Shown here: positions 6,018 to 59,844 of the stretch, in pieces
Layout of the letters: each line of letters opens with the position of its first letter
Position numbering within the stretch: position 1 is the first letter of the stretch
Assembly (NCBI GenBank): GCA_965219955.1
Contig: OZ244799.1
Span: 2,112,001-2,176,000, forward strand
Origin: a bacterium
Lineage (GTDB): Bacteria; UBA8248
Direction: 5' to 3'
DNA: 64,000 nucleotides
Notes under the pieces: model-generated
What the model was told of the DNA's origin: nothing
The model's input: only the letters and a program-made list of their open reading frames with translations
Database searches by the model: none
Translations under genes and position numbers: made by a program

Positions 6018-7061
6018 ATGAGGGACCCTCAAATGCTGAACGGCGACGTCTTCGTTTTCGACAACGTGGTGCACATGTACGACCTCTCGGACGAGAACCT
6101 CGCCCGCCCGGACAGCGGACTCGATCGCCTCTGGCACCTGCGTATCGGCAAGGGAAGACGCCCCGCGGGCCAGGAGGACGTCTACGCGGGCGGAGACGCA
6201 ATCGGCGGGTTCGCCAGGAAATGGACCTGCGATGAGCTCGGCAGGCTGGTCTTCGAGGATTCCGGGACCGACATGGCGATGGCGCAGGCGGTCGTGCTCT
6301 ACGACGTCTACAAGGAGGGCTTCTCCCCCGTTCAGGCGCAATACGAATTCGCATGCGCGAACCCCGAGCGCGTCTTGTTCTGCGGCGGGGTGGACCCCAA
6401 GTATCCGAGCGTCGAGGGCGCGCTCGAAGAACTCGAACGCCAGGTGACGGAGATGGGCGCGCGCTCGATGAAGTTCTACAACGCCCACATCGACGGGAAC
6501 TCCTGGCGGTGCGACGACCCCGAACTCGCCTATCCGATATACGAGAAAGGGCGCGAGCTGGGGCTCAACGTGTTCCAGTACCACAAGGGCTTTCCCATCA
6601 CCCGAGCGCGGCTGGAGGATTTGACGCCGCTCGACATCCAGCAGGCGGCCATGGATTTCCCCGACCTCACCTTCGCCATCCACCACCTGGCGCTCCCCTA
6701 CTTCGAGGAGTGCGTCTACATCGCGGCGCGTTTCGAGAACGTCGTGCTCGTCCTCTCGGGCACGATGCACCTGCCTCTCGTCGCGCCCTGGCAGTTCAAG
6801 GAATACATGGGCAGGCTGCTCCGGGACGTGGGCTCGGAGCGAATCCTCTGGGGTTCGGAAGCGCCCCTTCTGGGCAATCCCCAGCCCATGATCGAGTGGT
6901 TCTGGGAGATGGAGATCGACGAGGAACTCCAGGAGCGCTACGGCTATCCCCCCATCACGGAGCAGGACAAGCGCAACATCCTGGGCGAGAACCAGGCGAG
7001 GCTCTTCGGGATCGACATGGAGACGAAGAAAAAAGAACTCGGCAGGGCCGGGGGTTGTTGA
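6018..7061 (+). CDS. Amidohydrolase_2 family protein
   Basis: DNVVH, YHKG, IHH, WGSE motifs and 'KRNILGENQARLFGI' tail. Alternative start 6033. Stop codon lies inside a repeat TIR. Confidence 0.85.
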   Translation: MRDPQMLNGDVFVFDNVVHMYDLSDENLARPDSGLDRLWHLRIGKGRRPAGQEDVYAGGDAIGGFARKWTCDELGRLVFEDSGTDMAMAQAVVLYDVYKEGFSPVQAQYEFACANPERVLFCGGVDPKYPSVEGALEELERQVTEMGARSMKFYNAHIDGNSWRCDDPELAYPIYEKGRELGLNVFQYHKGFPITRARLEDLTPLDIQQAAMDFPDLTFAIHHLALPYFEECVYIAARFENVVLVLSGTMHLPLVAPWQFKEYMGRLLRDVGSERILWGSEAPLLGNPQPMIEWFWEMEIDEELQERYGYPPITEQDKRNILGENQARLFGIDMETKKKELGRAGGC

Positions 7062-7440
7062 AAAAGTCCTGCTTCGCTTGAGATTGACCTTCGCTTTTGT
7101 TCGTCATTCCGGCGAAAGCCGGAATCCATTTTCGCCTTTGTCTTTGGCTTTTCGCCCAGCCGTCCTCTCTCCCGACCGGGGAAGATATGAACGCCGCCAT
7201 ATATATCCGCCTCATCCGTTCCGGATTCGGGAGCGGCGTTCCCTTCCGCGAGTCGGAGTCAAATGCGAAAACGAAAATCAAAAAAATGGATTCCGGCTTT
7301 CGCCGGAATGACGGTGGTTTTCCCGCATCGAGGAGACTTTTCAACGACCCCGACAAGGGGGGTAGGGGGGGTTGCTTTTATGGGATTTCCCTTTCAAGGG
7401 GGTTGCCATCACCCTCTCAGGGAGTTTTTCAACAGGCCCC
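7051..7440. mobile_element. TIR-bounded composite repeat cluster 1
   Basis: GGGGTTGTTGAAAAA at 7051; right-end TIRs at about 7338-7351 and 7425-7440; inverted pair of CGTCATTCCGGCGAAAGCCGGAATCCA (7102-7128 / 7287-7313); GACAAGGGGGGTAGGGGGG unit. Confidence 0.75.
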
Positions 7441-7584
7441 CAAAAGGCGGTCAGTCCAATCCTCCGGACCACCTCAGGGCGCCGTGTGCTCATCGCCGGA
7501 GGACGCCACATCGATACTGGCCAGGACCTGGCCGTTCTCGCCGTTGCCCGTTGCAAACCTTGCGCTCCAACCGAACCGGCGAGC

Positions 7585-7989
7585 TCAACCGCAATGGACC
7601 TGAACCACCCGCCCATCGGTGCCAACTTCGATGTTGAGCCGTTCAGTCCGGATATCCTTCGTAAGCGCGCGACGCATCCAAACCTGCCCGTCATCGCCGA
7701 CAACGACGTAAGTGATCCGGTTACCGACGATCCCGTATATCCGAAACGGCATCGGCACCACGCCGACCTTTTCGACAGGCTGCCCCATCATCGCCTTGAA
7801 CTCCGCCACTGCGCAAATGCGTCTTGTTGCAACCGCGGGCATGTCAGCCACAGATATCCCGTTCGTGCCGCTAGACGGGAAGGCGCTGCTCGTCGCTTCC
7901 GCCCAAGAGATCGAAATACACACGACCAAGGTCGCAAAACCGAGGACACATACGGCCAGGAGGAAAGTCCTTGAAAGAAGCTTCATCAT
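7585..7989 (-). CDS. Secreted protein with peptidase inhibitor I78-like C-terminus
   Basis: Hydrophobic N-terminal signal; C-terminus TKDIRTERLNIEVGTDGRVVQVHCG resembles the I78 T.D.R..RLN...D..G.V..V.CG pattern. Confidence 0.6.
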   Translation of the reverse strand: MMKLLSRTFLLAVCVLGFATLVVCISISWAEATSSAFPSSGTNGISVADMPAVATRRICAVAEFKAMMGQPVEKVGVVPMPFRIYGIVGNRITYVVVGDDGQVWMRRALTKDIRTERLNIEVGTDGRVVQVHCG

Positions 7990-8230
7990 GTTACCCCCTG
8001 TTTCAGAAATACAGCCTTGCCTGCCCCAAGGGCCACGGTGGACGACGGCCCTATGGCGACACGTCCGCTGAACCACCGACTCCTGCCTTCTTCAGTCTCA
8101 CCGAAAGCGTAGCGCAAGCGCCCCGGATGCACCACAGAGTCCATAATGGCGTACGTCAATGGGACAAACGAGTCTCCGGCATCCGGGGAACACGGCAGTA
8201 CTCCGAACAAGTAACGAGTAACCTCGATGC

Positions 8231-8397
8231 AACCTTGCCGCCAGGACCGACATCGCCAAAGTTGAGGCCGGCATGGAAGCCCTGCGACAGGAAACCAGAG
8301 CCGGTATCAAGGCGGTGTAGGCGGATATTCTGAAATGACTGTTCGGAGCGCTGATCACCCAAGGCGGCCTGATCGCAACCCTGGTCAAGCTGCCGCA
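8231..8397 (+). pseudogene. DUF1640/CCDC90-like coiled-coil gene remnant
   Basis: Reads NLAARTDIAKVEAGMEALRQETRAGIKAV*ADILK*LFGALITQGGLIATLVKL, with in-frame stops at 8318 (TAG) and 8336 (TGA where W is expected); 5' part missing. Confidence 0.65.
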
Positions 8398-8471
8398 GCG
8401 CCGCCCGTGCCAACGTGCCGTACATGGTGCGGTTTCCCCGGTGATTTTAGCTGAACAATTCCTCCCTCATC

Positions 8472-8847
8472 AGGGCTGTTGAAAAAGCTGGCGTACGTTA
8501 TCTCTGGCGCTCTCTCCTTCAAAGAGAGTTTCAAATCACTCCCCCCTTGAGGGGGAGTCGAAGAGCTAAGGGCGTAAGCCCGCAAGCGATTCGGTGGGGG
8601 GTATAATTTGGAATGGCGATAAAACGAGATTCACCCCCCACCGATTCAGCCTTCGCACAAACCGCTCGGCTTCATCGACTCCCCCTCAAGGGGGGAGTGG
8701 TTCTTCCTCTCTGGTAGGTTGTGCCCGACCCTCAAGGGGGGAGCAATTTTTTCTCTCATCCATTGGCAATGCTGTTCAAGAGCGATGTAAGCAGCCCTGC
8801 CCGTAGGGAGTGAGTTCCGAGCGGTAATGGCCTTTTTCAACAGCCCC
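8472..8847. mobile_element. TIR-bounded composite repeat cluster 2
   Basis: AGGGCTGTTGAAAAAG ... CTTTTTCAACAGCCCC; contains a ~160-bp CACTCCCCCCTTGAGGGGGAGTCGA...TCGACTCCCCCTCAAGGGGGGAGTG multi-hairpin unit. Confidence 0.8.
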
Positions 8848-8977
8848 GAGCCGGGCGGCGCGGCGGTCGATTTCACGGGGTTTCGGATTGACCCTCATCG
8901 TTTTCTGAGCGAGGATGAGCCGGACGAAAAAACTATTTTCAGATGCCTCCGGGCGAACAGGAAATGGAGGATTTTCC

Positions 8978-10108
8978 ATGCAACCACCCTATGACGGTGA
9001 AAAACTCGACCGCCTCATGCAGGACGCAGGGGTCGATCTCGTTCTGGCGAATACGCGGGAGAACGTGCGTTATCTGTGCGGCGGCTACTACTTCCACTTT
9101 CACGAGAGGTTCACGGCCTTGGGGCGCGGCCAGTACATGGCGCTGGCGGGCATTCCTCGCGGCGACGCCGGAAAATCGTTCCTGATCGGCGGCGGCGGGG
9201 AGATCGGCCAGGCGCAGGACCAGAACCTCTGGGTTCCCGAACTCATCCCCTCGGGCAGATATCCGGCGGAAGCCGCGGCGAACGCCGCGAACGCCATCTC
9301 GGCGCGCGGGCTGGGGAGCGGAACCATCGCCGTTGAGGGCAACTTCCTGCCCGCCGTCGCCAAGGATACGCTCTTGAGCGAACTGCCGAACGCGACCTTC
9401 GTCGAAGCGCTGCCGATTCTGGAGGAGCTTCGCGCCATCAAGACGCCCGAGGAGATCGATATCTACCGGCGCATCTCCCAGGCGGACGCGGAAGCCATTC
9501 GCGACGCTTTCGAGACCGCCAAGCCCGGCGCCACCACGCGCGATGTCGCCCACGCCGTGGAGCGGGGCATGACGGACAGGGGCCTCCACTTCCTGTGGGT
9601 CTTCGCCGCGGCGGGGCCGGGCATGCTGCGCGCCCCATCCGGGAAGGTGTGGGAAAAGGGCGAGGTGCTGCATCTGGACGCGGGCGGCTCCCAGTCCGAC
9701 TACCTGACCGACATCTGCCGCATGGGCGTGCGCGGCGAGCCCACGCCGCTTGCGGACGAGCTCTACAAGGCCTGTCTCGGCACGCAGGATCACGTGCGCG
9801 CCGAGATTCGCGCAGGCGCGGTGTGCGGCGACATCTACGAGAAGGGCACGGCGTATCTCAAGAACACCGAGCACGGGGAATACGGCAACTTCATCATCCA
9901 CGGCATCGGCATGGTCTCGCACGAGCAGCCCTATTTCGGCCCCGGCGTCGAGAGAGCGCTCGAAGAGGGCATGGTGGTGTCGATTGAGACCGACATCCGC
10001 CACCCCGAGGTGGGCTACGTGAAGGTGGAAGACGCCGTGGCGGTGACGGCGGACGGCTACGAGCCTCTGGGCGACCTGGGGCGTGAGGACTGGGTGGTCG
10101 TCGACTGA
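8978..10108 (+). CDS. M24 family (Xaa-Pro peptidase/creatinase-like) metallohydrolase
   Basis: LRAIKTPEEI linker; ligands D..D (LDAGG, LTDICR), HGIG, HE, SIE, VED; GGAGGA RBS before ATG 8978. Confidence 0.9.
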   Translation: MQPPYDGEKLDRLMQDAGVDLVLANTRENVRYLCGGYYFHFHERFTALGRGQYMALAGIPRGDAGKSFLIGGGGEIGQAQDQNLWVPELIPSGRYPAEAAANAANAISARGLGSGTIAVEGNFLPAVAKDTLLSELPNATFVEALPILEELRAIKTPEEIDIYRRISQADAEAIRDAFETAKPGATTRDVAHAVERGMTDRGLHFLWVFAAAGPGMLRAPSGKVWEKGEVLHLDAGGSQSDYLTDICRMGVRGEPTPLADELYKACLGTQDHVRAEIRAGAVCGDIYEKGTAYLKNTEHGEYGNFIIHGIGMVSHEQPYFGPGVERALEEGMVVSIETDIRHPEVGYVKVEDAVAVTADGYEPLGDLGREDWVVVD

Positions 10109-11244
10109 TGAAACCCACGTACGATGAGGAAAAACTCGCCCGCCTGATGGGAGAGGCGGGCGTCGACCTCATACTCGCGCACACGCCCCACAACATCCGC
10201 TACCTGACGGGCGGCTACTACTTCCATTTCCGCGAACGAGTACCGGCCATCGGGCCGAGCCAGTACCTCCCCTTCGTGGGGATTCCCCGCGATAACTCCG
10301 AAAAAGCCTTCCAGGTGGCCTGGCGCGTCGAGGCGTCGCCCCGAAACGAGGTGGACACCTGGATACCCGAGGTCATCTACACCAGGGCGCGGGGAACCGT
10401 AGGCGCCGCGGAAACGGCCGCCGAGGCGATCAGGAAACGCGGTCTCGCCGAGGGAACCATCGCCGTCGAACACGCCTTCATGCCGGTGGACGCGATGGAA
10501 GCGCTCCAAGGAGAACTCCATGGTGCTCGGTTCGTCGAGTCCCTCGGGGTTCTTGAGGAACTACGCGCCGTGAAGAGAGAGGATGAGCTTGCGATATTCC
10601 GGCGCGCCGCGAACGCGGATTCAGAAGCCATACAGGCGGGTTTTCAGGAGGGAGCGCGCGACGTAACGACCCGGCGGGTGGAGCAAAAAGTGGAGGAGGA
10701 AATGGTGCGGCGCGGCCTTCATTTCCACTACGCCTTCACGGCGGCGGGACCCGGCATGAGACGCGAGCCGTCCGATAAAATCTGGGAGAAAGGGGAAATC
10801 CTCCACATCGACGCGGGAGGCTCCGAGGCGGGCTACATGTCCGACATCTGCAGGATGGGGGTGCGGGGCGAACCCTCCGCTCTGGCCGAAGAGTTGCACA
10901 AGGCGTGCCTCCACGCGGTAGACGTTTGCCGAGGCGTCATCCGCGCCGGTGCGAGTTGCGCTTCGGTGCACGAGCGGGGACACCGGGCGTTCGCGGACAC
11001 CGGCTTCGCCGACATGGGGATTTTCGAGGTGCACGGCATCGGCATGGTGCAGCAGGAGTTGCCGCGCTTCGGCCCCGGGGTGGAGCGTAAGCTCGAGGCG
11101 GGCATGGTGGTATCCGTCGAATGCGACATCCGCCACGCGGAGGTCGGCCACGTGAAGATTGAAGACGCCGTCGCCGTCACCGAAGACGGCTGCGAGGGCC
11201 TGGGGGATCTGGGCAGGGATACCTGGGCCTGCATCGACTCATAA
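10108..11244 (+). CDS. M24 family metallohydrolase (tandem paralog)
   Basis: Same motif set (IDAGG, MSDICR, HGIG, SVE, IED); TGATG coupling to the previous gene; clearly homologous to it along its length. Confidence 0.9.
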   Translation: MKPTYDEEKLARLMGEAGVDLILAHTPHNIRYLTGGYYFHFRERVPAIGPSQYLPFVGIPRDNSEKAFQVAWRVEASPRNEVDTWIPEVIYTRARGTVGAAETAAEAIRKRGLAEGTIAVEHAFMPVDAMEALQGELHGARFVESLGVLEELRAVKREDELAIFRRAANADSEAIQAGFQEGARDVTTRRVEQKVEEEMVRRGLHFHYAFTAAGPGMRREPSDKIWEKGEILHIDAGGSEAGYMSDICRMGVRGEPSALAEELHKACLHAVDVCRGVIRAGASCASVHERGHRAFADTGFADMGIFEVHGIGMVQQELPRFGPGVERKLEAGMVVSVECDIRHAEVGHVKIEDAVAVTEDGCEGLGDLGRDTWACIDS

Positions 11245-11978: not shown

Positions 11979-12325
11979 CGGGTTGTTGAAAAAGCCCCCT
12001 GACAAGAGGGGTCGTGGGGTTCTGACGAGGGGGCGGCAATATCTCCTCCTCACCCTGAGTAGCGGCGAAGCCGCGTATCGAAGGGCAAACGCGATTGATG
12101 AATGAGCGTTTGCTCTCGCCACGGCGTGAGTTCCTCGCCCCTCGATACAAACGCTCCTTTCTCAGTCGCGTTTTACCTTCGGAGCCTACTCGGGATGAGG
12201 TATTTTGGCGTCCCTCGCCCTTCCCCGGCTCGAACCAAACCGCATACCCCCCGACGAAGGGATGCCCCCCCGACAAGGGGGGTTGGGGGTTCCCACCCCG
12301 ACGAGGGGACTTTCCAACAAGCCCT
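11979..12325. mobile_element. TIR-bounded composite repeat cluster 3
   Basis: GGTTGTTGAAAAAG ... CTTTCCAACAAGCCC; TATCG on both flanks (11976-11980, 12326-12330); cargo includes CTCACCCTGAGTAGCGGCGAAGCCGCGTATCGAAGGG and CCCC-GACAA-GGGG units. Confidence 0.75.
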
Positions 12326-12350: not shown

Positions 12351-12582
12351 TGCCCGCATTTGCCGTCATGGGACTCGTGGAGAACTCATGTAGAATGGCC
12401 AAGCGGCCAGGCGCGTTCGCCGAATCCGAATTTCCATAAAATTCGATAAAATTGGATAAATTCACGATGTTTTTCGATAAATAAACGGTAAATTGTTTTA
12501 TCGGGAAATGGCGCAGCCGGGTCGCGGCGCACGGGAATACTGCCACGGTCCGCGAGCGGTTCGATGACGGCAAATGCGGGCA
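12351..12582. repeat. 19-bp perfect inverted repeat enclosing a phased GATAAA core
   Basis: TGCCCGCATTTGCCGTCAT (12351-12369) and its exact reverse complement (12564-12582). Core 12440-12488 matches the reverse complement of 26927-26975 at 41/49 nt. Confidence 0.8.
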
Positions 12583-12786
12583 GATGCGCGCGCGAAAACC
12601 GGTCCTGACGGCCGGATTCCGCCGCGACCCGCGCTGCGCTCGATGACGGCGAATGCGCGGACCAGCGGAGATGAAATTCCCTCGGGCGCGCTTTGCATGG
12701 ACGCGAGGGCCTGATGGAACGAGGGTTTTCCCGGGAGGATCGGATATCGCGCGTTGCTTTAATAACAGGGTATAAGTAATTGATAT

Positions 12787-13702: not shown

Positions 13703-14644
13703 TCATGCCGGAATCCGGCGGCCCCTCCATGACGCCACGGATTCCAGGACGCAAACGACACCGGCCAGAGAATCCCAGCCCGAGCTATGTCCTATCTTGT
13801 CCAACTCACGCAAAGCGGAACGCAAGCGCGCCTCATCCGCTATCCCCAGCGCCGAAATCGTCTCATGCAGGGCTTCAGTTCCCTGGCCTCCGGCCGCGCA
13901 CTCCATATGCGCGCGACTGATTTTATTCGTCCGCTCTTCAGCCCGTTTCAAGACATCACCGGACACTTTTTCCAAAATGCCCATAAAACCCTGCGCGCGC
14001 AACGCTATCATCACACCGCACCAAAAATCATCTCCCGACGGCGTGAGCCCCGGGCCGAGGCCAACGAGCCTGCGGGCAATGGCAGGAAATTCGAGGTTTT
14101 CCCCTTGATCCAGAGAGTGCGACAACCAAAGCCGGAAGTCCGAGATTCCCTTCCAGGAGACTGTTTGAAACGCGTCCTCATTCGAGATTTCCTCGCCGCC
14201 CACAACCTGCGCGATGAGCGGGGCCAGACCCTCCCGGGGCCCCGTTTCGGCTATCCACTGAACGAGAACCGGGAGATTTTCCAGAAAAAACTCCAAATCC
14301 CAGCCGTCAGGCAGCGGCTCCGGTTCCCACGCCACCGGGCGGGATATATCGATTTTCATCCGGGGGCCAAGTTGCATCCAGCCATCCCGGATTTTGGCGG
14401 GGCTTCCCGGTTCTACGATTTGCGTGAAATCCACGTCGTCCGAGAATTCACAAAGCGCATTCAAGGGTCCCGGCCCGATACCCTTATCGCCTATGCACGC
14501 GACCCGCCCGAATGTATTTTCCACATACAAACTTCTACGAAACACACCGATGATTGTCGCCTCACCCGGTGAGGTGAAGAATTTTTTAGCGAACGCGCCT
14601 GCAAGAACCACTCGGAGTGTATTTGGCATAAAAAAGACCTGCAT
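13703..14644 (-). CDS. DUF2877 (YahE/YlbF-like) protein
   Basis: GLGPGLTPSGDD and IGHSSGWD motifs. Confidence 0.85.
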   Translation of the reverse strand: MQVFFMPNTLRVVLAGAFAKKFFTSPGEATIIGVFRRSLYVENTFGRVACIGDKGIGPGPLNALCEFSDDVDFTQIVEPGSPAKIRDGWMQLGPRMKIDISRPVAWEPEPLPDGWDLEFFLENLPVLVQWIAETGPREGLAPLIAQVVGGEEISNEDAFQTVSWKGISDFRLWLSHSLDQGENLEFPAIARRLVGLGPGLTPSGDDFWCGVMIALRAQGFMGILEKVSGDVLKRAEERTNKISRAHMECAAGGQGTEALHETISALGIADEARLRSALRELDKIGHSSGWDSLAGVVCVLESVASWRGRRIPA

Positions 14645-14672
14645 TATGAAGCGATTGTTTCAGCCTGGAAAG

Positions 14673-14706
14673 AAAATCCCCCCACCCACACAAGGGTGAG
14701 GGGTTT
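14673..14706 (-). terminator. Probable terminator hairpin
   Basis: AAATCCCCCCACCC-acacaa-GGGTGAGGGGTTT with A-run on the + side, just after the stop of the 113-aa gene. Confidence 0.55.
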
Positions 14707-14723
14707 GTTCGCATATGCAATTT

Positions 14724-15065
14724 TCATCCACACCCAGGACCCCTGGTCTCACTCGCCGCAACCCCGGATGGCACAAGCGTACCTGCAAAGTTCGGGTCCG
14801 CCTGTTGTTTTTCAACCAGTTCGCCTAATTGCGACAGCAGCATCTCGCGTTTCATCAATCCCAAACGGTATATGCCCATCGGATTTATAAGCTTCATATA
14901 GTAATGGTTTCCAGCGTCATATTCCGTAGAGCACGCAGAAGGTTTTTGGGCGATGGAAAGAGGCCCCCCAAATACATCTGCAAATCGGGACAGGATTTCC
15001 TCATGATGTAAATCCGCCGGTATTTCGGGAAATCTGACCAAGAGTTCCTGGATAGTCATCGTCAC
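14724..15065 (-). CDS. Hypothetical protein (113 aa)
   Basis: AGGAG RBS, natural composition, same strand as neighbours; ends GPGCG. Confidence 0.7.
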   Translation of the reverse strand: MTMTIQELLVRFPEIPADLHHEEILSRFADVFGGPLSIAQKPSACSTEYDAGNHYYMKLINPMGIYRLGLMKREMLLSQLGELVEKQQADPNFAGTLVPSGVAASETRGPGCG

Positions 15066-15192
15066 AACTCCTTTATCAGTTGATCATTCAAACGCAACAA
15101 CCCACTCATTTTAGCAGATATCGAACAGCCCGGCTCCCTGCATTCTGATGCTGCGACACTAAAACGAGCAAATCTCAAGAACAGCACAAGGA

Positions 15193-17166
15193 TTACATTT
15201 CCCGGATAAAGCGCGCAGCATAACTTCTTACATCTTTCCCGTTCAGAACATGGAATCGACGTATGCGGGCGATCGTTTCCCCAGAAAATCGACCAATAGG
15301 TATGTGAATCAGATGCTTCTTATACAACCGCGCAATCTGCCGCCAGCGTGTATTTGGAGGGTGCGGACTCACCAGGGCGATGAATCGCTCTTTCGAATGA
15401 AAACATGCCCCTGCAATCAATCGCTCCTCCAGTGTCTGTGTGTAGTGAAAGTGCGAATCCCGCCAGACATCCTCGATGTACCTGGGAGGAAAAACAAAAA
15501 ATGCCCCGCCATACTGAGATTCCGCGACCCCCGGCCCCACCAGGTTGTTCTCAAACGGAGTCGCATACATGCAAAGAGTTGATTCTTCATCATGTTCCGC
15601 ATACCACATCGTTCGCCAGGAGTACTTTCCGGCATCGGCGGGCGTGTCGAACAAAAAAACGACGACCTCCAGGTTCCCTCGCGCAGGGGGAATTTCTTTT
15701 ACATAAAGGTCGCCCGTATGCCAGTTGCGAAGCGTTTCCCTGATGTCCAGCCCATCTTTTATCGACGTCGTGAATTTCTCGGTACGCGCCAAATCCTCTC
15801 CCAACAACGCCTTGGCTTGCTCGCGCACATGGGTATGAAAACTCTCTATCGCATCATCTTCCGGCGGCCAGGAACACATGCCGAAAGGATTCCACCTCTG
15901 GGCCCAATTCTTACTTTCAAACGGGGTGGGCTTGGGCTTGAGGGAAATACTCCTCCAGGTGACGGCTGAACCGCCCAACCGAGACTTCATCGTTCCGACA
16001 TCTCCACCGGGGAATGCCGCACGGCCCACACCCATATGGACAAGAGCATCTTCATTCGATGAAGTTTTTTCTGGCTGATACGGATATTTCCTTGCAGTCT
16101 CAAGCAAAGAGAGGGCAAAAGCATCTCCTGCGGTTTGCTTTGCCGCCAGGGCGAGGGTGAACAAATCCGGCGTCAATCTCCTTCCCTGAAGCGTCAGGTT
16201 CCGGACATATTGCAAGAAAATCTGGAGTCTTTGAGGCGTTACCCAGTTTTGCACGGGCCGATGTTCCTGGAGCCATGCCGTTCTCGCCTCCACGAGGAGT
16301 TCCTTGACGCCGTCGATAGAAAGATTGGAGTCCCCCAGGAATTCTTCACGTTTTTTTTCGTATAAATACGTCAGATAGGGAAACTCCCCCAAGAGGAAAG
16401 CCAGAGTATCCTCCGATACTCCATACTTTCGGGGCGGGTTAAGAGACGCGCCTTCATGCGACTCGAATAATTCCTTATCACCGGACGGCCCTTCTCGGCA
16501 CGCCGAGCGAACCCAGGGCCAATCCATCGCGGAACATACGAAAACGATGCGCTTATACCTGGCCTCGAGTTCCAGTAAGGCGTCGGCCATCCAGCGGATT
16601 CTCGCAGCACGCTGTGTCGAGGGAGAAGGCTTTGGAGCTACCGTCAAAAGAGTGGCTGCAAAAGCCTCCATCGGTACTTTTTTCAGCGCGTACGGATCCG
16701 GCAGCGCATGAACATCCTGATGGAAACGCTCCACTTCCATATCCACAAAAACCCTGGGAATACGCTCTCCCATCGCGACTCTCAAAGCGGAAATCACGGG
16801 TTGGCAAGGGTCGATGGGCACATAATTACAAGAAGACAAATTGGATTCATCCGCCAACGAATCTTCTTGAGCTCCAAAATCATCTTCCGCCTCGGGGTAA
16901 GCATCCCATGGCTCATCAAACCCTGCTTCATCACTTCCGGGATATGATGGCGTATCCTCATTCATCGATACGATGGAGACATATGGGAGGTCATCCACGC
17001 CTGCTTCTACTTCGTGCTGAAATGACGGAGGCAGGGGAATCGCAATACAATCGGGCTCAAGTCGCAAAATCCTGTCGCGCACTTCGACGGCAAAGTCCCC
17101 CGATCCGTGGATGACAGGAAGTACGCTGGTGCGATCGGTGATATTCAGGAAACCTCGCGCCACCAT
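15193..17166 (-). CDS. Conserved hypothetical partner of the MoxR-type ATPase (657 aa)
   Basis: Long ORF 3 bp downstream of the ATPase. N-terminal LPVIHG...P (TraB/TIKI-like look); DGLDIRETLRNW motif; no clear DxSxS MIDAS. Confidence 0.8.
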   Translation of the reverse strand: MVARGFLNITDRTSVLPVIHGSGDFAVEVRDRILRLEPDCIAIPLPPSFQHEVEAGVDDLPYVSIVSMNEDTPSYPGSDEAGFDEPWDAYPEAEDDFGAQEDSLADESNLSSCNYVPIDPCQPVISALRVAMGERIPRVFVDMEVERFHQDVHALPDPYALKKVPMEAFAATLLTVAPKPSPSTQRAARIRWMADALLELEARYKRIVFVCSAMDWPWVRSACREGPSGDKELFESHEGASLNPPRKYGVSEDTLAFLLGEFPYLTYLYEKKREEFLGDSNLSIDGVKELLVEARTAWLQEHRPVQNWVTPQRLQIFLQYVRNLTLQGRRLTPDLFTLALAAKQTAGDAFALSLLETARKYPYQPEKTSSNEDALVHMGVGRAAFPGGDVGTMKSRLGGSAVTWRSISLKPKPTPFESKNWAQRWNPFGMCSWPPEDDAIESFHTHVREQAKALLGEDLARTEKFTTSIKDGLDIRETLRNWHTGDLYVKEIPPARGNLEVVVFLFDTPADAGKYSWRTMWYAEHDEESTLCMYATPFENNLVGPGVAESQYGGAFFVFPPRYIEDVWRDSHFHYTQTLEERLIAGACFHSKERFIALVSPHPPNTRWRQIARLYKKHLIHIPIGRFSGETIARIRRFHVLNGKDVRSYAARFIREM

Positions 17167-17169
17167 GAA

Positions 17170-18144
17170 TCAATCGTCTCGGCCGGGGTGCAAGGGGCTA
17201 TCGCCTCCAAAGAAAATATCGCCGAAATCAAGTGGAGGAGGCTCATCGCCGAGAGCCTGTCGTCTTCTGTGCGCAAGACTTTTCAAGTCCAAGGCATCAT
17301 CTCCCAACACCTTGGTGAGCGACTCTCTCCATGCTTCGTCTTGAGAGAGTGGGTGCTCCGGGTCCTGCGCGAGACGTTTCAGGGCGAATTGAAGGATGTG
17401 GATTCCATCCCGAGGGGAATATTCAAGGTCCAGAGCATGGGCTTCCTGCAAAAACTGCACCGTCAAGGCCAACATCTCATTGGGGGCAAACGGCAAGTGA
17501 TATTTCAGAATGGCCAGTTCATCTTTCTTGTTCGGGAATTCAAGCGCGAGGGTCGGCTGGAGTCTCGACAGGATGTAATCGGGCACCTCGTATGTCGAGG
17601 CATCTTCATTCATCGTCACACAACAGCGAAAATCCGGGTGCGCCTTTACCGTAATCCCCGCAACGATAGACTCCACATAACGGCGGTGATCGAGCAACGG
17701 AGCCAGCGAGGCCCAACTCTTCTCGCTCATCCGGTTGCCCTCATCGAGCACACAGACGCCTCCCCGTATCATGGCCGTAACGAGAGGGGATGCGTGATAG
17801 GCGATTTTCCCTGATTCCGCCAAAACGGGCGTGATCAAGAGATCTTCCGGGCGGGTATCGGAGGTGCACTGATAAATAAACAGTTCCTGGCCTCGTTCCC
17901 GCGCCGCCGCCATCGCCAGCGTGGTTTTCCCGATCCCCGGGGAACCAACAATTCTCGGAGAAAGAGAAAAGTCTTCTTCCGCAACCACCATCCAGCAGGC
18001 CTGAAGCTGGCGAAGCACTTCTATCTGGCCGATCCACTCCTGGTCGGAAACGGTGTGCCTGCCCAGATGCAGGGATACGCCTTCGATTTCCACTACTCTC
18101 ACTTCTGACTCTTCATTGCCTGATGTTTTATCGTGCAAAATCAA
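17170..18144 (-). CDS. MoxR/CbbQ-like AAA+ ATPase
   Basis: GSPGIGKTT Walker A, VLDEGNR Walker B, TMN sensor, YSPRD. Confidence 0.9.
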
Positions 18145-18208
18145 CTCCTCATTTCAAAATTCGCATCAAACGGTCTTGGCATCCCACCCTTGCATCCGGG
18201 GCATGCTA

Positions 18209-18955
18209 CTAATCCGTAAAATATCCCCCGTTTACATCCAGGGCTTCTCCGGTGATATGCGCAGCTTCCTCACTTGCAAGAAACAAAGTGGGCGGCACCA
18301 ATTCCGCAGCCGTCGCGAACCTCCCCATCGGGTGTTTCTCCAGCGCTCTTTTGTACAATTCCGGCCCAAACTCTCGCATCAATGGCCCGTCAATCGGCCC
18401 GGGGACCAAACAGTTTACTGTCACTCTGGTTTTCGCCAGTTCGCGGGCAAGGTTGAACGTCATGGCCAAAATACCACCTTTTGAAGCGCCATAAGTGAGA
18501 TTATGGCCCAGTCCCCCCGATTTTCCGGCCCCCGAACCAAACAGGATGATTCGCCCCGCCGGAGAATCCTTGAGTGCGGGCATCGCGCCTTTGATGCAAA
18601 AATAAGGCGCCAGGAGATTCACGTTCAGAGCGCGCCTCCAATCAGATTCACCAAGCGAGAGCGGGTCTTTCACCAACATGTTCGCCGCCGTGTGAACGAA
18701 GATGTCACATCCACCAAGCCATGCAATCGCTTCTTTGCTCATGGCATTTAATTCATCAAAATTTTCCATATTGCAATGTATCTTCTTCAGCATCTCCTCG
18801 GAACCTTTGATGTGACGCAGTTTTTCTGAACTTCGACCCGTTGCGACAAGCTTTGCGCCTGTACCCAGAAATCCTTGAACGAGCGCTTTTCCCACATCTC
18901 CCGTGGCGCCGGTCAGGAGCACTTTTTTGCCATGAAAATCAAAACGAAGCGTCAT
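18209..18955 (-). CDS. SDR family oxidoreductase (FabG-like)
   Basis: TGATGDVG, YGASK catalytic motif, ITGEALDVNGG. Confidence 0.9.
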   Translation of the reverse strand: MTLRFDFHGKKVLLTGATGDVGKALVQGFLGTGAKLVATGRSSEKLRHIKGSEEMLKKIHCNMENFDELNAMSKEAIAWLGGCDIFVHTAANMLVKDPLSLGESDWRRALNVNLLAPYFCIKGAMPALKDSPAGRIILFGSGAGKSGGLGHNLTYGASKGGILAMTFNLARELAKTRVTVNCLVPGPIDGPLMREFGPELYKRALEKHPMGRFATAAELVPPTLFLASEEAAHITGEALDVNGGYFTD

Positions 18956-19108
18956 CCTGTTTCTCCCAAAACAAGCGCATAACTTTCAACCAGCCCCTTC
19001 CCCTGATATATATCGAATAAGATACAATATCGACTAAAGGATAGCATTTTTGATAAAGGATTATCTTTTCGTCGCTTAGCATGCGAAACGACACCGTGGA
19101 GAACACCC

Positions 19109-46910: not shown

Positions 46911-46931
46911 ACCGTTTCTCCAAACGAACAC

Positions 46932-47354
46932 ATGGGAACATCAAGGAGTCTTCACTTGTTCGAATCGCTGCCCGCCGTTTTCCTCATCACCAAAGACTAT
47001 GAGGCGTCGTGTCGTTTTTATACCGAAACGCTGGGTCTGAAAGAAGCGAGCCGGGCGAAAGACCACGTGCGCTATGACCTGGGAGGAACCTCGCTCGTCA
47101 TCCACGCGCCGATTCCCGATGAGGAGATGCGGAAGTGGAATCTCGAACCCCTCCGGGAGCCCCGCGGCTCTGGCGTCGTCGTCACGCTCACGCCCGAGGA
47201 CGTGGATCGCGCCCATGACGCGCTCATCGAAAAGGGCGCGGAGGTCATATTCCCTCCCCGCGACGCCCCCTGGGGCGTGCGCATGTTCATGCTGAAAGAC
47301 CCGAACGGGTTTCTGATCGAGGTCAGCAAACCCCTTCCAGGCGGGGATTGTTGA
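46932..47354 (+). CDS. VOC/glyoxalase family protein
   Basis: D...S.RFY...LG, DVDRAHDAL...G, PWGVR.F...DPNG..IE; stop lies inside a TIR. Confidence 0.85.
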   Translation: MGTSRSLHLFESLPAVFLITKDYEASCRFYTETLGLKEASRAKDHVRYDLGGTSLVIHAPIPDEEMRKWNLEPLREPRGSGVVVTLTPEDVDRAHDALIEKGAEVIFPPRDAPWGVRMFMLKDPNGFLIEVSKPLPGGDC

Positions 47355-48111
47355 AGAAGCCCTCGTCAAGGGAGTACCCCCCCACCCCCCTTTTCGGGAC
47401 TGGTGAAAAAGCCCTTTATGCGTCCCCTGGAAACCGCCGACGCCCCTTTCCTCACCCTGAGTAGCCGCCGAAGGCGGCGTATCGAAGGGCGCGGTGAGTC
47501 GAACGCCTCGCGCCGGGCGAGAGGGCATCCTTCGATACGGCGCTTGCGCGCCTACTCAGGATGAGGCGGTGTGGTTTTGTTCGTCATTCCGGCGAAAGCC
47601 GGAATCCATTTTCGCCTTTGCCTTTTCGCCTCCTCGTTCGGCCGTCTTTACTTCCGGGCGAGGCGGATCGGAATCGAACACAAAAACGAAAGGCGAATTC
47701 TCTGGATTCCCGCATCCGGATACCGGCCAACAACGAGGTCGTGGCACCCTGCCCGGTGAAAAGTCAAAATGGATTCCGGCTTTCGCCGGAATGACGGCGG
47801 GGCGTGACCGTAGGGACAGGTCGCGACCTGTCCCTACAGAACCACCGCGCCAGTCCGTAATCACTCCCCCCTTGAGGGTCTGGCTTCCCGAGGGGAAAGC
47901 CAGACGAAGAGCTAAGGGCGTAAGCCCGAAAGCGATTCGGTGGGGGGGATAATCCGGAATGGCGATAAAACGCGATTCACCCCCCACCGATTCAGCCTTC
48001 GCACAAACCGCTCGGCTTCATCGACTCCCCCTCAAGGGGGGAGTGATTTTTCTCTCTCGTCGGTCGGTTGCATACGACAAATCCAGAGTTCCGGGCTTTT
48101 CCAACAACCCC
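47344..48111. mobile_element. TIR-bounded composite repeat cluster 12 (all five cargo families)
   Basis: GGGATTGTTGAAGAAG ... CTTTTCCAACAACCCC; CCTGAGTAG pair, CGTC pair (47582/47770), 28-bp palindrome at 47810, CACTCCCCCCTTGA unit nearly identical to that in cluster 2. Confidence 0.85.
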
Positions 48112-52740: not shown

Positions 52741-52932
52741 CTTTTTCTCCTCAAAATAACGAGCCGGATGACAAATCAAACTTCAGTGGTGTCCTTCAAC
52801 CTTGCGCTTCGGCCCGCATCTGTCAAGGCGCGCAGCCTCGCTTGATGCGCTTGGGTTGTGATACATATTCCCCCCGAGATATTTTCCAACAAAATTCCGT
52901 GCAGCGAAAGAAATTTTTTCAGGGAGAAAAAC

Positions 52933-54165
52933 ATGCTCTACAACAGGGAACGCGCGCTGGAACTGATGCGGGAACACGACGTGGCGGCCATGATCGGCAC
53001 GACGCTCGAGAACGTCACCTACCTGACGGGCCACATCGGCTGGGCGCAGCGGGTCTACCGCGCGCGCAAAAGCTACGGCGTCATCACCAGCGACCCGGCC
53101 GCCGGCACCGACCTCATCATGAACCGCGCGGACAACACCTACTACGCCGCCTACGGCGGACACGCGGAGAACGTCTACGTCTGGGGCGGGCAGGCGAACC
53201 ACATCGAACCGGAGGGCTACGAGCCGCATGACGACGAGATGAGGCGCTACCGCGAACTCCACGCCAGCGGAGCCAGGCACGCCACCCTCCTGGACGGCCT
53301 CCTCGCCGCGCTTAAGGACCGGGGCATCACCTCCGGCAGAATCGCCCTGGACGAGGAGGGCTGCCCGGACAGCCTGTTCGAGACTCTGAAAGAAAAACTC
53401 CCCGATTGTGAATTCATCCCCGGCTCGGGCCTGTTTCTGATGACGCGGCTCGTCAAGACGGCGGACGAGCTCGACCGCCTGCGCGAGGCGGCCCAGGTGA
53501 ACGAAGACGCCATCGGAAAAGTCTTTGACTTCCTGCACGAAGGCGTGAGCGAGCGCGAGGTGGCCGAGGTCTGGCGCCAGGAGGTGGCCCGGCCCGGCGG
53601 CATGTGGCACTGGTTCCACTTCAACTCGGGCCCGAGGGGCGTCTTCATCTTCCCGCCCACGGACAGAAAGCTCGAAAAGGGCGACGGCTTCATGTTCGAC
53701 GCGGGGCTTTTTCACAAGAACTACAACGCCGACACGGGAAGCTGCGGCTCCATCGGCGAGCCGAGCGCGCGCGTGCAGCGCGAGTGGAAGGGAATCGACG
53801 AGGGGTTCCACGAGTGCCTGGAGGTCATCAAGGCGGGCTGCACGGGCAACCAGATATACCAGGCGCTCGTGAAGGGGATACAGTCGCGGTTTCCTGAGTT
53901 CGACGCCCCGTTCGCCGGGCACACCATCGGCCTGGAAGCCAGGGAGTTCCCCTTCATCCTGGGGCCGGAATCCAAGCACAATCAGCCGTTCTATCCGACG
54001 ACTTCGGAGATTCCCCTGCCCGTCGATTCGGTGATCAACATCGAGGCGCCCATCGGCACGTTCGGCCTGGGCGGCTACCAGATCGAATACTCGGTCGTCG
54101 TGAAGGAAAACGGCTGGGAGATGCTCATCCCGCAGGACAGGAGCTTCCGCGTCATCGACAAGTGA
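52933..54165 (+). CDS. M24 family metallohydrolase
   Basis: ENVTYLTG, RLVKTADEL, FDAG...Y.AD, GHTIG, NIE, QIE. Confidence 0.88.
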   Translation: MLYNRERALELMREHDVAAMIGTTLENVTYLTGHIGWAQRVYRARKSYGVITSDPAAGTDLIMNRADNTYYAAYGGHAENVYVWGGQANHIEPEGYEPHDDEMRRYRELHASGARHATLLDGLLAALKDRGITSGRIALDEEGCPDSLFETLKEKLPDCEFIPGSGLFLMTRLVKTADELDRLREAAQVNEDAIGKVFDFLHEGVSEREVAEVWRQEVARPGGMWHWFHFNSGPRGVFIFPPTDRKLEKGDGFMFDAGLFHKNYNADTGSCGSIGEPSARVQREWKGIDEGFHECLEVIKAGCTGNQIYQALVKGIQSRFPEFDAPFAGHTIGLEAREFPFILGPESKHNQPFYPTTSEIPLPVDSVINIEAPIGTFGLGGYQIEYSVVVKENGWEMLIPQDRSFRVIDK

Positions 54166-54189: not shown

Positions 54190-54950
54190 CTATCGGGCGG
54201 ACACATGGGTCCCCGGACAGGCCACTGTTCCTGTCCGGCTACACCTTTCCGCGTATCGAAGTGAACCTGTAGGGGTTATTCAAAAACCTCTCTCCGCCTC
54301 ATCCTGAGTAGCGGCGAAGCCGCGTATCGAAGGATGCCCTCTCGCCCGGCGCGAGGCGTTCGACTCCCCGCGCCCTTCGATACGCCGCCTTCGGCGGCTA
54401 CTCAGGGTGAGGAAATAGGCGTTGGCGGTTTGCGGGGGTCACAAGCGGGACTTTTTCAACGGCCCCGGTAGGGGCGGTTCGCGAACCGCCCCTACGATCG
54501 AGGTCAGAATTGCCGGAATGACGACCACAGGCATAACCGCCCGTTTTGGAACAACGTAATTCATTCCTGAATGACTGGGTGTTGTGTAAGGACAGGCCCC
54601 CATGCCTGTCCTGAATGTATCCATCCTGAAAAGGACAACCACGGGGGGTTATCCCTACCCTACTCAAGAAGTTGTGTAGGGTCAGACATATATGTCTGAC
54701 ATATCATGCGGCCCTGCCTTTTCGCCTTCACAACGCGGGTCGCATGATATGTGTGGGGCAGCCCCAAGGAGGGGCTGCCACCTACACCCCTTTACTTCCG
54801 TGGTTGAGTGATCACGAAATGAGAAGGGGAGCAGACAAAGAACGATTAACGGCCTTTTGTAGGGACAGGTCGCGACCTGTCCCTACGGAACCCCCTCCCC
54901 TGTTGGATCCACTCGCCACATCACGGAACCAGGATTTTTTCTACAACTCC
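54190..54950. repeat. Composite repeat cluster 13 (inner TIR element at about 54272-54466)
   Basis: CCTGAGTAG inverted pair inside TIR-like ends, with GTAGGGG on both flanks; GTAGGGGCGGTTCGCGAACCGCCCCTAC; GTAGGGTCAGACATATATGTCTGAC; 28-bp palindrome at 54859. Confidence 0.8.
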
Positions 54951-58223: not shown

Positions 58224-58226
58224 AGG

Positions 58227-58681
58227 GGGGTTGTTGGGAAAGCCGATTTCGGGAGCGAGCGCACAAGCACCCCAACCTCCTCATCCTGAGTAGGCGCTTC
58301 AGCGCCGTATCGAAGGAGGGGAAAGAACATCCCTCGGCGGATGCGGGGTCTCGCCCTTCGATACGCGGCTTCGCCGCTACTCAGGGTGAGGTCGATATGG
58401 TAGTTGCGGGTTTCGGCCTTTAACAGCATTGTCAACCGACGAGAGAGGAAACACCACTCCCCCTTTGAGGGCCATTTGCAACCGATTAGAGGAAGAATCA
58501 CTCCCCCCTTGAGGGGGAGTCGATGAGCTAAGGGCGCAAGCCCGCAAGCGAATCGGTGGGGGGACATGCCACAGAAAAAGCTCCCCCCACCGAATCGGCC
58601 TTCGCAAAAAACGCTCGGCCTCTTCGACTCCCCCTCAAGGGGGGAGTGATTCCTCTCTCCTCGGACTTTTTCAACAGCCCC
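58227..58681. mobile_element. TIR-bounded composite repeat cluster 14
   Basis: GGGGTTGTTGGGAAAG ... CTTTTTCAACAGCCCC filling the gap between two convergent stops; CCTGAAGG/CCTAAAGG flanks; CCTGAGTAG pair and CACTCCCCCCTTGA unit. Confidence 0.85.
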
Positions 58682-58682
58682 C

Positions 58683-59315
58683 CTAAAGGCTTCTTTGAGG
58701 CGAGCGCGCGTTCCGGATGAGCAGGTACAGGGCGTAGAGAAATACCAGGCGGCCGAGCCAGGGCAGGACGGGCGCAAGCCATTCCCACGATAAACCCGCC
58801 TCGCAGACGATGACGCCCACCAGGGCGTAGAACAAGACCCCCGCCCATTTTCCCGCCGCATCCTCGGGCAGGGACTCATCCGTACTCCCGGCCCCACTCC
58901 GGCAGCGCCACAGGAACTGCGCACCCAGCGCCAGGACGCCCAGGGCGGCCCAGGGGCCGACGCGCCCCGCCCAGGCGGCGGCTGAGAGCGCCGCCGCGTT
59001 GAAGGCGACGTCCGAGATGGCGTCCACCTGCCCCCAGAAATAACTCCTGGCATTTGCGCGCCTCGCCAGCGGGCCGTCCACCAGGTCGCTCAGGACCGCG
59101 TAGACGTAGACGGCGACGAGCAAGACCCGCCACCCCGGGTCGGGCGTGGAACCGATGCGCAGCAACGCCCAGACGAAGGGGGGAATCGCCAGAATCCGCG
59201 CGAGCGTGAGGCCCCTCGCCAGATACGCGAGCTTGTGGTTGATCGATCCCTCCCCACCCACCTGTCTTCCTCCCCGGCGGCCAAGCGCGCCGAAAACGTG
59301 AAAAATTCCGATCAC
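58683..59315 (-). CDS. CDP-alcohol phosphatidyltransferase family protein (start uncertain)
   Basis: LTLARI, SDLVDGPLARR...S.FWG.VDAISD (DG..AR...G...D...D). Confidence 0.85.
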   Translation of the reverse strand: MIGIFHVFGALGRRGGRQVGGEGSINHKLAYLARGLTLARILAIPPFVWALLRIGSTPDPGWRVLLVAVYVYAVLSDLVDGPLARRANARSYFWGQVDAISDVAFNAAALSAAAWAGRVGPWAALGVLALGAQFLWRCRSGAGSTDESLPEDAAGKWAGVLFYALVGVIVCEAGLSWEWLAPVLPWLGRLVFLYALYLLIRNARSPQRSL

Positions 59316-59379
59316 TCTGCCTCAATCGGAGCCGCGGAAAAAGCCTCCTCGCCGGGGCGTCGCCTTTGTCCTCTGATGA

Positions 59380-59844
59380 GGGGTTGTTGAAAAAGCCTGT
59401 TTCGGGATCGGCGGCAAGGAGGTTCACGCGGCGCAGACGTGATGGTTTTGTAGCAGGACAACCCAAAAGGGTTGTCCTGGCCTCCGTGCCTGTCCTGCTC
59501 TTCATGGTTCTCCTTCGTCAGGACAGGCACGGAGGCCTGTCCCTACAGCGAACAATCTCGAAGGTCGGACAGGGCTTTTTCAACAAGCCCCTCAAGGGGG
59601 AGTGATTCCCAAGTGACAAGGATTCCGTAGGGGCGGTCCCCTCCGGCCGCCCGCATCGGGCACGCGATCCCCGTGGTTGCGCTTTATGAGGACAGGCACG
59701 GGGGCCTGTCCCTACGGGACATCCTTCGCCGTCATGCCGGCGAGTCCTCCCGCCTTGGTCGGCGCAGAACCGCCCTCCATCGAGATTCACCTCGACGAAT
59801 CATTGAAACGCCACCTGTAGGGACAGGTCGCGACCTGTCCCTAC
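59380..59844. mobile_element. Composite repeat cluster 15
   Basis: GGGGTTGTTGAAAAAG ... CTTTTTCAACAAGCCC fused to TCAAGGGGGAGTG; GTAG REP doublets; 28-bp palindrome at 59817. Confidence 0.8.

Follow-up and report, generated by a model that had tools for sequence, protein, structure and literature searches.

The 64,000-nucleotide stretch considered here, positions 2,112,001 to 2,176,000 of contig OZ244799.1 (assembly GCA_965219955.1) from a bacterium of the UBA8248 lineage, is referred to throughout as the window. Its genes are ordinary chromosomal ones, encoding succinate dehydrogenase, 2-oxoacid:ferredoxin oxidoreductase, M24 peptidases, amidohydrolases and molybdopterin oxidoreductases, and between them lie clusters of short palindromic repeats bounded by a common terminal inverted repeat (TIR). 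These clusters, whose origin and growth we discuss here, sit tight against gene ends and are found in convergent, divergent and co-directional contexts alike.

The TIR, GGGGYTGTTGAAAAA, has 34 matches in the window when up to two mismatches are allowed, seven of them exact. In dinucleotide-preserving shuffles of the window (n = 100) the mean number of matches was 0.26 and the maximum 3, and none of the 100 reached 34. A preliminary reading of the window, made without database searches (the sequence-only reading), had described most of the clusters as opening and closing with a pair of such sequences, and this pattern holds: in 11 of the 12 clusters with at least two copies a TIR in plus orientation opens the cluster and one in minus orientation closes it, the exception being 35034-/35069-. 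Three copies stand alone at this threshold (5938-, 11979+ and 27414-). By reading, 11979+ pairs with a TIR of three mismatches that ends at 12325, and 27414- with a degenerate partner at about 27084. The TIR-bounded spans, 13 in number, total 5,624 bp or 8.8% of the window. Across the window and the related loci described below, elements are 91-798 bp long. By self-BLAST, 6,894 bp of the window is repeated, of which 2,236 bp belongs to a paralogous gene pair; this is the pair of adjacent creatinase/M24-peptidase genes at 8915-10108 and 10108-11244, which have a third paralogue at 52858-54165 and whose 2.2-kb match lies outside the repeat system. No match was returned by Rfam at its gathering threshold over the whole window, and a tRNA/tmRNA scan of the window found none.

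The interiors of the clusters are built from five kinds of module, including GTAG-tagged repetitive extragenic palindromes (REPs). All five had been recognised in the sequence-only reading and all five are found in the window:

M1, CGTCATTCCGGCGAAAGCCGGAATCCA: seven matches, with pairs at 7102/7287 and 47582/47770
M2, palindromes of the form CTCAYCCTGAGTAG ... GTATCGAAGG: 16 first-half matches and seven palindromic units; contains GTAG
M4, a G/C-run hairpin: seven matches, with pairs at 8537/8677, 47862/48023 and 58499/58626
M5, a G/C-run hairpin: six matches, with pairs at 11996/12267 and 38601/38712
GTAG-tagged REP hairpins and doublets: 22 hairpins

M1 has the structure CGTC-ATTCCGGC-GAAA-GCCGGAAT-CCA. 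This is the structure of a CGTC-1 REP as defined in a passage of Di Nocera et al. (PMC3733652), namely a CGTC head, an 8-bp stem starting with AT, a 4-nt loop and a CCA tail, occurring mostly as head-to-head dimers. The CGTC-1 family, according to the same passage, takes in the Neisseria dRS3 repeat, and the CGTC REPs are there described as lacking a dedicated transposase. The GTAG modules are REPs or REPINs (REP doublets forming hairpins) by the usual description, being GTAG-tagged palindromes of 20-40 bp, often in inverted doublets; examples are GTAGGGACAGGTCGCGACCTGTCCCTAC at 33765, 54859 and 59817, and the doublets at 27221/27268, 41617/41646 and 45584/45632. As a separate observation, the core of about 165 bp between M4 hairpins (8534-8699, 47902-48067 and 58493-58666) is 91-94% identical to its counterparts in two loci of another genome, L053 and L118. 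This conservation is as high as that of the coding flank common with a further locus, L030, and the core has no match in Rfam.

These L-numbered loci are TIR-bearing stretches, at least 124 in number, obtained by a 16-mer scan of a species-representative genome collection. When the ends of window and locus elements are compared, 99 of 225 TIR ends fall into 29 families in which the TIR, the subterminal region and a module stand in register, and many of these families span several genomes. The clusters of the window, with their relatives in these end families, are as follows:

7051-7351, 301 bp: TIR element with a head-to-head CGTC REP dimer, M1 at 7102-7128 and 7287-7313; both ends belong to end families common with L025; no match to this element by BLAST against a plasmid collection
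7352-7439: right-end fragment of an M5-type TIR element, TIR- at 7425-7439; its M5 hairpin (7347-7369) borrows the CCCC of the TIR ending at 7351 as one arm; end family common with L001 and L079
8472-8847, 376 bp: TIR element with a pair of M4 hairpins, 8537-8559 and 8677-8699; its M4 core is 93-94% identical to L053 and L118
11979-12325: M5 pair (11996, 12267) around an M2 palindrome, 12049-12199; right TIR degenerate, with three mismatches
25385-25607, 223 bp: TIR element with one M2 palindrome, the left TIR lying directly after an M4 half hairpin, CACTCCCCCCTTGAG; end family common with L022, L057, L059 and the element at 54272
27084-27414: degenerate left TIR, M5 hairpins and a GTAG REP doublet, 27221-27289
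29272-29791: composite TIR element with an M2 palindrome, a GTAG REP (29563-29592) and a CGTC dimer (29609-29755); GACAAGGGGGG, a hairpin loop and arm, follows directly after the right TIR
33560-34000: TIR-less cluster of a GTAG REP doublet, a single REP and a CGTC-like pair
34985-35069: two same-orientation degenerate TIRs (35020-35034 and 35055-35069), minus strand, with a decayed CGTC half
38433-38862: solo CGTC REP (38433-38459), TIR element 38508-38778 with an M5 pair, and an extra TIR- at 38848-38862
41531-41702, 172 bp: TIR element with a GTAG REP doublet, occupying a 197-bp intergenic gap
45440-46237: nest between two ABC-transporter genes, its outer pair flanked by CCTCC
45559-45739: inner element of this nest, a REP doublet flanked by TGAAG, inside the loop of an M4-type hairpin
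45744-46237: further part of this nest, with REP and M2 units and the closing TIR at 46223-46237
47344-48111: composite with tandem left TIRs (47344, 47396), an M2 palindrome, a CGTC dimer, a GTAG REP, an M4 pair and a right TIR; its left part belongs to an M2-type end family and its right part to a family joining an insertion-sequence right end to M4
54272-54950: M2 element 54272-54466, followed by GTAG REPs and an extra TIR- at 54936-54950 whose subterminal region is homologous to an insertion-sequence right end
58227-58681: composite TIR element with an M2 palindrome and an M4 pair; the orthologous region is partly present in L030
59380-59846: TIR element 59380-59590 with REP doublets, its left subterminal region homologous to an insertion-sequence left end; an M4 half hairpin and REPs follow beyond the TIR pair

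Complete elements form long hairpins in which the TIRs close the fold, with z = -9.66 for 45440-46237 and z = -6.35 for 25385-25607 (DNA fold). The TIR also reaches into the neighbouring genes, in that the TGA at its positions 9-11 is the stop codon of three Pfam-supported open reading frames (ORFs):

7059-7061: stop codon of ORF 6018-7061 (plus strand), an amidohydrolase
47352-47354: stop codon of ORF 46182-47354 (plus strand), a glyoxalase-like protein
46227-46229: stop codon of ORF 46227-46931 (minus strand), an ABC ATPase

Since all three ORFs stop inside a TIR, the insertions have replaced the original ends of these genes.

Origin and targets of the elements

On the evidence of homology, the TIRs can be identified as the ends of a DDE insertion sequence (IS) of the IS1182 family. 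The link is provided by locus L014, where a 430-residue ORF (2128-3420) carries the Pfam domains DUF772, DDE_Tnp_1_6 and DDE_Tnp_1 and is the sole transposase in the 48 TIR-adjacent locus ORFs scanned, among the matches listed. This ORF scores 308.5 bits on the NCBIfam model NF033551 (IS1182 family transposase; cut-off 270) and is enclosed by perfect 19-nt inverted repeats, GGGTCTGTTGAAAAACCCC, giving an IS 1365 bp long. At two further loci, L102 (in a record titled Nitrospinota bacterium) and L115, a homologous transposase N-terminus adjoins an exact TIR on its inner side. Elements of the IS1182 family annotated on plasmids of Sinorhizobium and Bradyrhizobium share 54% amino acid identity over 86% of the query, have the ends GGGGCTGTTGAAGAA and GGGGTCGTTGAAAAAG, and are flanked by 5-bp target-site duplications (TSDs), TACGT and CGCGT.

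Homology between the short elements and the IS does not end with the TIR. About 55-60 bp beyond it aligns with both IS ends, as for 59380+, 48111- and 54950-; at the right end the homology reaches approximately to the transposase start codon, and at the left end it extends for about 58 bp. Because both subterminal regions are homologous to IS ends, the short elements are best regarded as deletion derivatives of the IS. The likeness to IS5/IS1182-type DDE ends proposed in the sequence-only reading is thereby given substance: an IS1182 copy with this TIR, subterminal homology and a 5-bp TSD exists, and the autonomous IS that it looked for is represented by the 1365-bp element of L014, together with the N-termini at L102 and L115. 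Two other derivations were considered and rejected. The TIR-associated tyrosine transposase elements mentioned in a passage of PMC3733652 have the motif GGGGWSAS, which the present ends do not fit, and an origin of the M4 hairpin from IS sequence at the transposase start codon is contradicted by the alignment, which places M4 further inside.

The rhizobial IS1182 copies offer an observation of their own. In L125 (445-1941, TSD TACGT) and L126 (441-1953, TSD CGCGT) the left flanks are near-identical (CTGGCAGCGCTGT...) and the IS follows directly after a palindrome, CAGCGCTG; the flanking genes encode an IS256-like transposase in L125 and an unnamed transposase in L126. The two copies apparently occupy corresponding sites, which hints at targeting specific for sequence or structure.

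The same TIR bounds short elements, 91-258 bp in length, in several kinds of record among the matches listed; their interiors are unrelated and mostly palindromic. Genomes with more than one match there include OY843592.1, CAYTSP01, JAPPHK01 and JAJEJD01. The record titles name Bacteroidales or Bacteroidia, Planctomycetes or Planctomycetales, Smithella, Alphaproteobacteria, Candidatus Porisulfidus and Oxydemutatoraceae, and two read 'uncultured bacterium'. Several of these elements are flanked by 5-bp TSDs, and near-identical units recur at unrelated loci and in other genomes. At one locus, L047 (OY843592.1), a phage-integrase-family gene of 563 residues (2323-4014, minus strand) adjoins a dense group of TIR elements.

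Duplication of the target was assessed on non-redundant innermost TIR pairs from the window and from the loci among the matches listed, with shuffled partners as control. Exact 5-bp TSDs flank nine of 54 pairs and 4-bp TSDs three of 54, compared with shuffled expectations of 0.31 and 0.28. When the boundary is allowed to shift by 0-2 nt, a 5-bp TSD is found for 12 of 52 pairs, where 500 control shuffles gave 0.79 on average and never more than 4, an excess of the kind by which the sequence-only reading had proposed to judge the elements. The four TSDs that it reported in the window are all present in the sequence. CCTCC at 45440-46237 and TGAAG at 45559-45739 are exact; CCGAG (41533-41702) and TATCG (11981-12325) need a left end 2 nt shorter than the right, and CCGAG is recovered by the shift-tolerant test as well.

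Some of the sites at which these duplications lie have a structural context in common that the sequence-only reading had missed. Five elements are flanked by complementary sequence that would form a stem of at least 6 bp, where the control gives about three in 54. All five belong to the 12 with a TSD, and in all five the TSD sits in the loop of the hairpin:

45559-45739 (window): CCCCCC-TTGAAG-GGGGG
L046 3427-3619: CCCCC-TGACAA-GGGGGG
L069: hairpin with a 7-bp stem
L076 and L083: loop of a GTAG REP

Taken over all 54 pairs, flank complementarity equals that of the shuffled control; only the TSD-bearing subset stands out. By reading, a C-run and loop such as CACTCCCCCCTTGAG also stands directly before about eight of the 34 TIRs of the window, where the GGGG of the TIR completes a hairpin. 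A published precedent exists in IS1272, a member of the IS1182 family, which is described in a passage of Wan et al. (PMC5678879) as targeting inverted-repeat or stem-loop structures. The reported outcomes are duplication of the loop, duplication of the stem-loop, and replacement of the stem-loop without a TSD; the same passage also describes one end being duplicated in tandem, and insertions located immediately downstream of genes. Judged by the sequence at their insertion sites, the elements have hairpin loops as targets, among them the loops of GTAG REPs and of M4/M5 hairpins, and the nesting of the clusters arises largely because elements insert into such loops.

Growth of the clusters and alternative explanations

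We conclude, with a probability that we put at about 0.8, that the clusters consist of non-autonomous miniature inverted-repeat transposable elements (MITEs) of an IS1182 subgroup, which carry palindromic repeats and target hairpins and hence have piled up. Sequence evidence on four points carries this conclusion, namely the IS1182 membership of the ends, the TSD excess, the hairpin-loop targets, and the existence of TSD-flanked units that contain cargo. Such units are of several kinds. At L045 1702-2016 the TSD CTCCA flanks a CGTC dimer with a REP, an arrangement to which window 29572-29757 is 88% identical; at L045 3047-3193 the TSD AAAAC flanks a single central M4 hairpin; and GTAG REPs are flanked at L046 3427-3619 (GACAA) and at window 45559-45739. 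Because cargo-bearing units are flanked by TSDs, and because the junctions between end and cargo recur across genomes, the cargo must travel with the element. The earlier picture of a MITE acting as a vehicle for palindromes can be retained for at least some units, then, since a CGTC dimer with REP, an M4 hairpin and GTAG REPs are each found between TSDs and with recurrent junctions. Its companion claim, that the cargo is normally spread by other enzymes, is established for the GTAG REPs alone.

A simple element comprises a TIR of 15-19 bp, GGGGYTGTTGAAAAAG, and about 55-60 bp from each IS end, with palindromic modules (a CGTC REP dimer, a GTAG REP or doublet, M2, or M4/M5 hairpins) in place of the transposase gene. 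In the mechanism that we propose, an IS1182 transposase encoded elsewhere in the genome would move whole units with a 5-bp stagger; from the homology of the ends we infer such mobilisation in trans in the source genome. Insertion would favour DNA hairpins, at their loop or their foot, in line with the published behaviour of IS1272. Hairpins of this kind are formed by the REPs, by M4/M5, and by the GGGG end of a resident element pairing with a C-run upstream of it, so that new copies would land within old ones or right next to them. Nesting, tandem ends, composites and head-to-head junctions with a gap of 4-5 nt would follow, in most cases with no clean TSD. Composites could arise where the inner TIRs of head-to-head neighbours make a long perfect palindrome that subsequently disappears or is exchanged. 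Such fusion of neighbours, through loss of the unstable inner palindrome, is speculative, and so is the idea that one element can replace another at a shared site.

Several features of the clusters correspond to these steps. Tandem ends are seen at 47344/47396, 7351/7439 and 38778/38862. Junctions at which a TIR- is followed by a TIR+ only 4-5 nt away, the pattern expected if new copies land beside a resident end, account for four of 22, in the window and at three different loci. One of the four is the palindrome at 45725-45758, with a perfect 15-bp stem, where the element 45559-45739 abuts the TIR of the next element.

A comparison between two genomes is possible at locus L030, in a record titled Nitrospinota bacterium, which is 94% identical to window 59883-61574 over 1,693 bp; the window thus comes from a close relative of that organism. 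The left TIR of the element 59380-59590 is found at the same junction in L030, and the right ends lie at non-corresponding positions. The interiors differ. In the window an end of the IS-left-end family stands at the junction, with REP doublets inside; in L030 the interior is in the opposite orientation, with an end of the IS-right-end family at the junction and an M4 pair inside. Either two elements have independently hit one hairpin, or one element has been replaced by another.

Some observations weigh against our interpretation. In the window itself a Pfam scan of 50 + 141 ORFs found no transposase or RAYT (REP-associated tyrosine transposase, Y1) domain, in agreement with the sequence-only reading. 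The L-numbered loci are a sample and not a census, and lone exact 16-mer matches, which occur in many records, are at the level expected by chance for a collection of this size. A TSD is missing from 39 of the 54 pairs, and from about nine of the 13 spans of the window; this would fit stem-loop replacement, but equally well copies that are old, have decayed or never transposed. About half of the module matches in the loci fall outside any recognisable TIR pair, in part owing to degenerate partners, and within the window too CGTC and GTAG REPs occur free of TIRs, at 33560-34000; these REPs also lead a life of their own beyond the TIR elements. The first entry of modules between IS ends is explained by no result. 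Finally, no empty site of the kind that the sequence-only reading hoped for in relatives was seen: the only orthologous locus among the matches listed, L030, is filled too, and when the loci were compared with one another by BLAST in search of more orthologous pairs, only overlapping stretches of the same contig emerged.

The alternative that best survives concerns this first entry, and is compatible with our explanation. Simple IS1182 MITEs may have spread first and served as landing pads, the other role named in the sequence-only reading, into which modules were inserted later (REPs by a RAYT-type enzyme, the others by unknown enzymes), for example at a hairpin loop extruded from the centre of a palindromic MITE. 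We consider this possible, and the less probable course. It would account for the seven of 22 GTAG REPs and two of seven CGTC REPs that lie outside TIR spans in the window, as well as for the similar matches in the loci, and the minimal element L045 3047-3193 has its one hairpin centrally, where such entry would place it. One IS-derived right end moreover continues into an M4 hairpin in some cases and into a GTAG REP in others, with the switch falling within a few bases of one point, which suggests repeated exchange or entry at that junction. Against it, the junctions between subterminal region and module stand in register across loci and genomes and cargo units have TSDs; with conserved junctions and TSD-flanked cargo, amplification must have come after the entry of the cargo. 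The M2-type module is off-centre, with spacers of about 12 bp and 40-73 bp. All 29 M2, M4 and M5 matches of the window lie inside TIR spans, as do five of seven M1 and 15 of 22 GTAG REP hairpins, and no RAYT (Y1 transposase) gene was found beside the REPs, either in the window ORFs or in the 48 locus ORFs scanned. M2, M4 and M5 may be the cores of particular MITE subfamilies rather than foreign cargo.

Far less probable is the view that the clusters are now immobile, being structural or regulatory palindromes kept by selection (terminators, mRNA stabilisers or protein-binding sites) with the TIR as a common functional motif. The tight fit of clusters to gene ends, the three ORFs that stop at the TIR, the retention of the left TIR of 59380 in L030 and the lack of a TSD at most pairs could all be read in this way. 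Such a view leaves the homology of the TIR and some 60 bp at each end to a transposase-bearing IS without explanation, however, and likewise the TSD excess and the near-identical units at unrelated loci and in other genomes. Clusters are found in every gene-orientation context, Rfam gives no match, and the interior at the orthologous site in L030 is wholly different.

Miniature derivatives of Tn3-family transposons, whose ends are about 38 nt long, begin with GGGG and create a 5-bp duplication, would share with the present elements the GGGG start and the 5-bp TSD where there is one, and can be dismissed, since the similarity common to the ends stops at about 16-19 nt and the only transposases found inside such ends are of the IS1182 family.

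If the IS1182 interpretation is right, it provides a concrete and testable mechanism for the growth of mosaic palindrome clusters, with hairpins both as the cargo of short derivatives and as the target sought by the DDE transposase that acts on them. The movement of CGTC-tagged REPs, a question that the passage of PMC3733652 leaves unanswered, would gain a candidate explanation as well. A wider proposal would be that IS1182 transposases are a general vehicle for transposase-less palindromes (CGTC REPs and G/C-run hairpins) in many phyla, with cassette-like exchange of cargo between fixed ends by stem-loop replacement. Window 59380-59590 compared with L030 has just this appearance, and the proposal in its full breadth is nevertheless rather doubtful. 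For genome annotation and assembly the elements have to be reckoned with, making up about 9% of the window, supplying three stop codons and forming an 800-bp nest between ABC-transporter genes.

Other features of the window stand apart from the repeat system. At 582-2343 (plus strand) an AAA_21 ATPase gene (382 residues) adjoins a gene for a DUF4276 protein (206 residues), a pair that matches the PADLOC candidate defence pair HEC-01A (E = 2.7e-160) and HEC-01B (E = 4.3e-63). The stretch from about 14000 to 24000 has a G+C content of 0.50-0.55, compared with 0.60-0.65 elsewhere, and may be more recently acquired DNA. Its genes encode an AAA_5 ATPase beside a 657-residue protein with no Pfam or PADLOC match, an SDR protein, tyrS, an MFS transporter and a 465-residue protein, also without a match. 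No TIR copy lies between 12325 and 25385, a MITE-free zone that includes this stretch. Self-BLAST also reveals an A+T-rich stretch with repeated TTTATCGAAAA-like words at 12436-12588 and 26927-26976, which is 79% identical to a stretch of OY843592.1 (L045 1356-1507) and unlike all of the palindromic modules; it may be a regulatory or binding-site array.

Comparison with known systems

The sequence-only reading had put the clusters forward as an undescribed system. This is too strong, since IS1182 elements, MITEs, stem-loop targeting and REP dimers within palindromes have each been published. In literature searches (supplementary files excluded), REP-carrying, hairpin-nesting IS1182 MITEs at such density were not found described; among the matches listed for the motif strings, all papers were unrelated by title and abstract, and the literature on IS1182 MITEs, sponge-symbiont MITEs and Nitrospinota sponge repeats gave no description of these elements. 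Every component is known, and it is the combination that appears to be undescribed in the searches made.

To our knowledge, neither the bacterial interspersed mosaic elements (BIMEs) of enterobacteria nor the Neisseria repeat mosaics have been described as bounded by IS-derived TIRs with TSDs. They resemble the present clusters in combining REP-type palindromes and short motifs in intergenic arrays, and the dRS3 repeat of the Neisseria mosaics belongs, on the account given in a passage of PMC3733652, to the CGTC-1 family of M1.

The closest parallel for the ends is with IS1272 and its IS1182 relatives, which, in the passage of Wan et al. 2017 (PMC5678879) cited above, share with them the DDE family, TIRs of about 16 bp, stem-loop targeting and the frequent absence of a TSD, and likewise a single end repeated in tandem and insertion sites immediately downstream of genes. 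The elements here differ in being 91-798 bp long, transposase-less and loaded with palindromic cargo, and the IS relatives with this TIR give 5-bp TSDs. They are also far denser, with 13 spans in 64 kb. IS1272 is a staphylococcal element, compared with them here by its published properties. The IS1182 MITEs of Methanosarcina acetivorans (Kamoun et al. 2013, PMC3852290) are likewise non-autonomous, at 160-169 bp, with an IS1182 partner and a direct repeat of 4 or 0 bp. Compared by description, they differ in being archaeal and present in 7-14 copies, and no REP-type cargo is mentioned in the passage concerned.

Insertion into REP hairpins, as at L076 and L083, recalls the REP-targeting ISs reported by Tobes and Pareja (2006, PMC1525189), and ISPpu9. 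The ISPpu9 papers, as listed, name the IS110 family, and these reports concern full-length ISs and not REP-carrying IS1182 MITEs. For the M1 elements the nearest likeness is found in Halothiobacillus neapolitanus, where, in the passage of Di Nocera et al. 2013 (PMC3733652), a palindrome was linked by the authors to no IS. All CGTC-1 dimers of that genome lie within this palindrome, of consensus GGGaaGCTT-GAAAaACC ... GGTaTTTCgAAGC-gCCC, which is never free of REPs. Its layout is that of the M1 elements described here, and, as judged by eye, the arm of the palindrome and the TIR have GGG....TTGAAAAA.CC in common.

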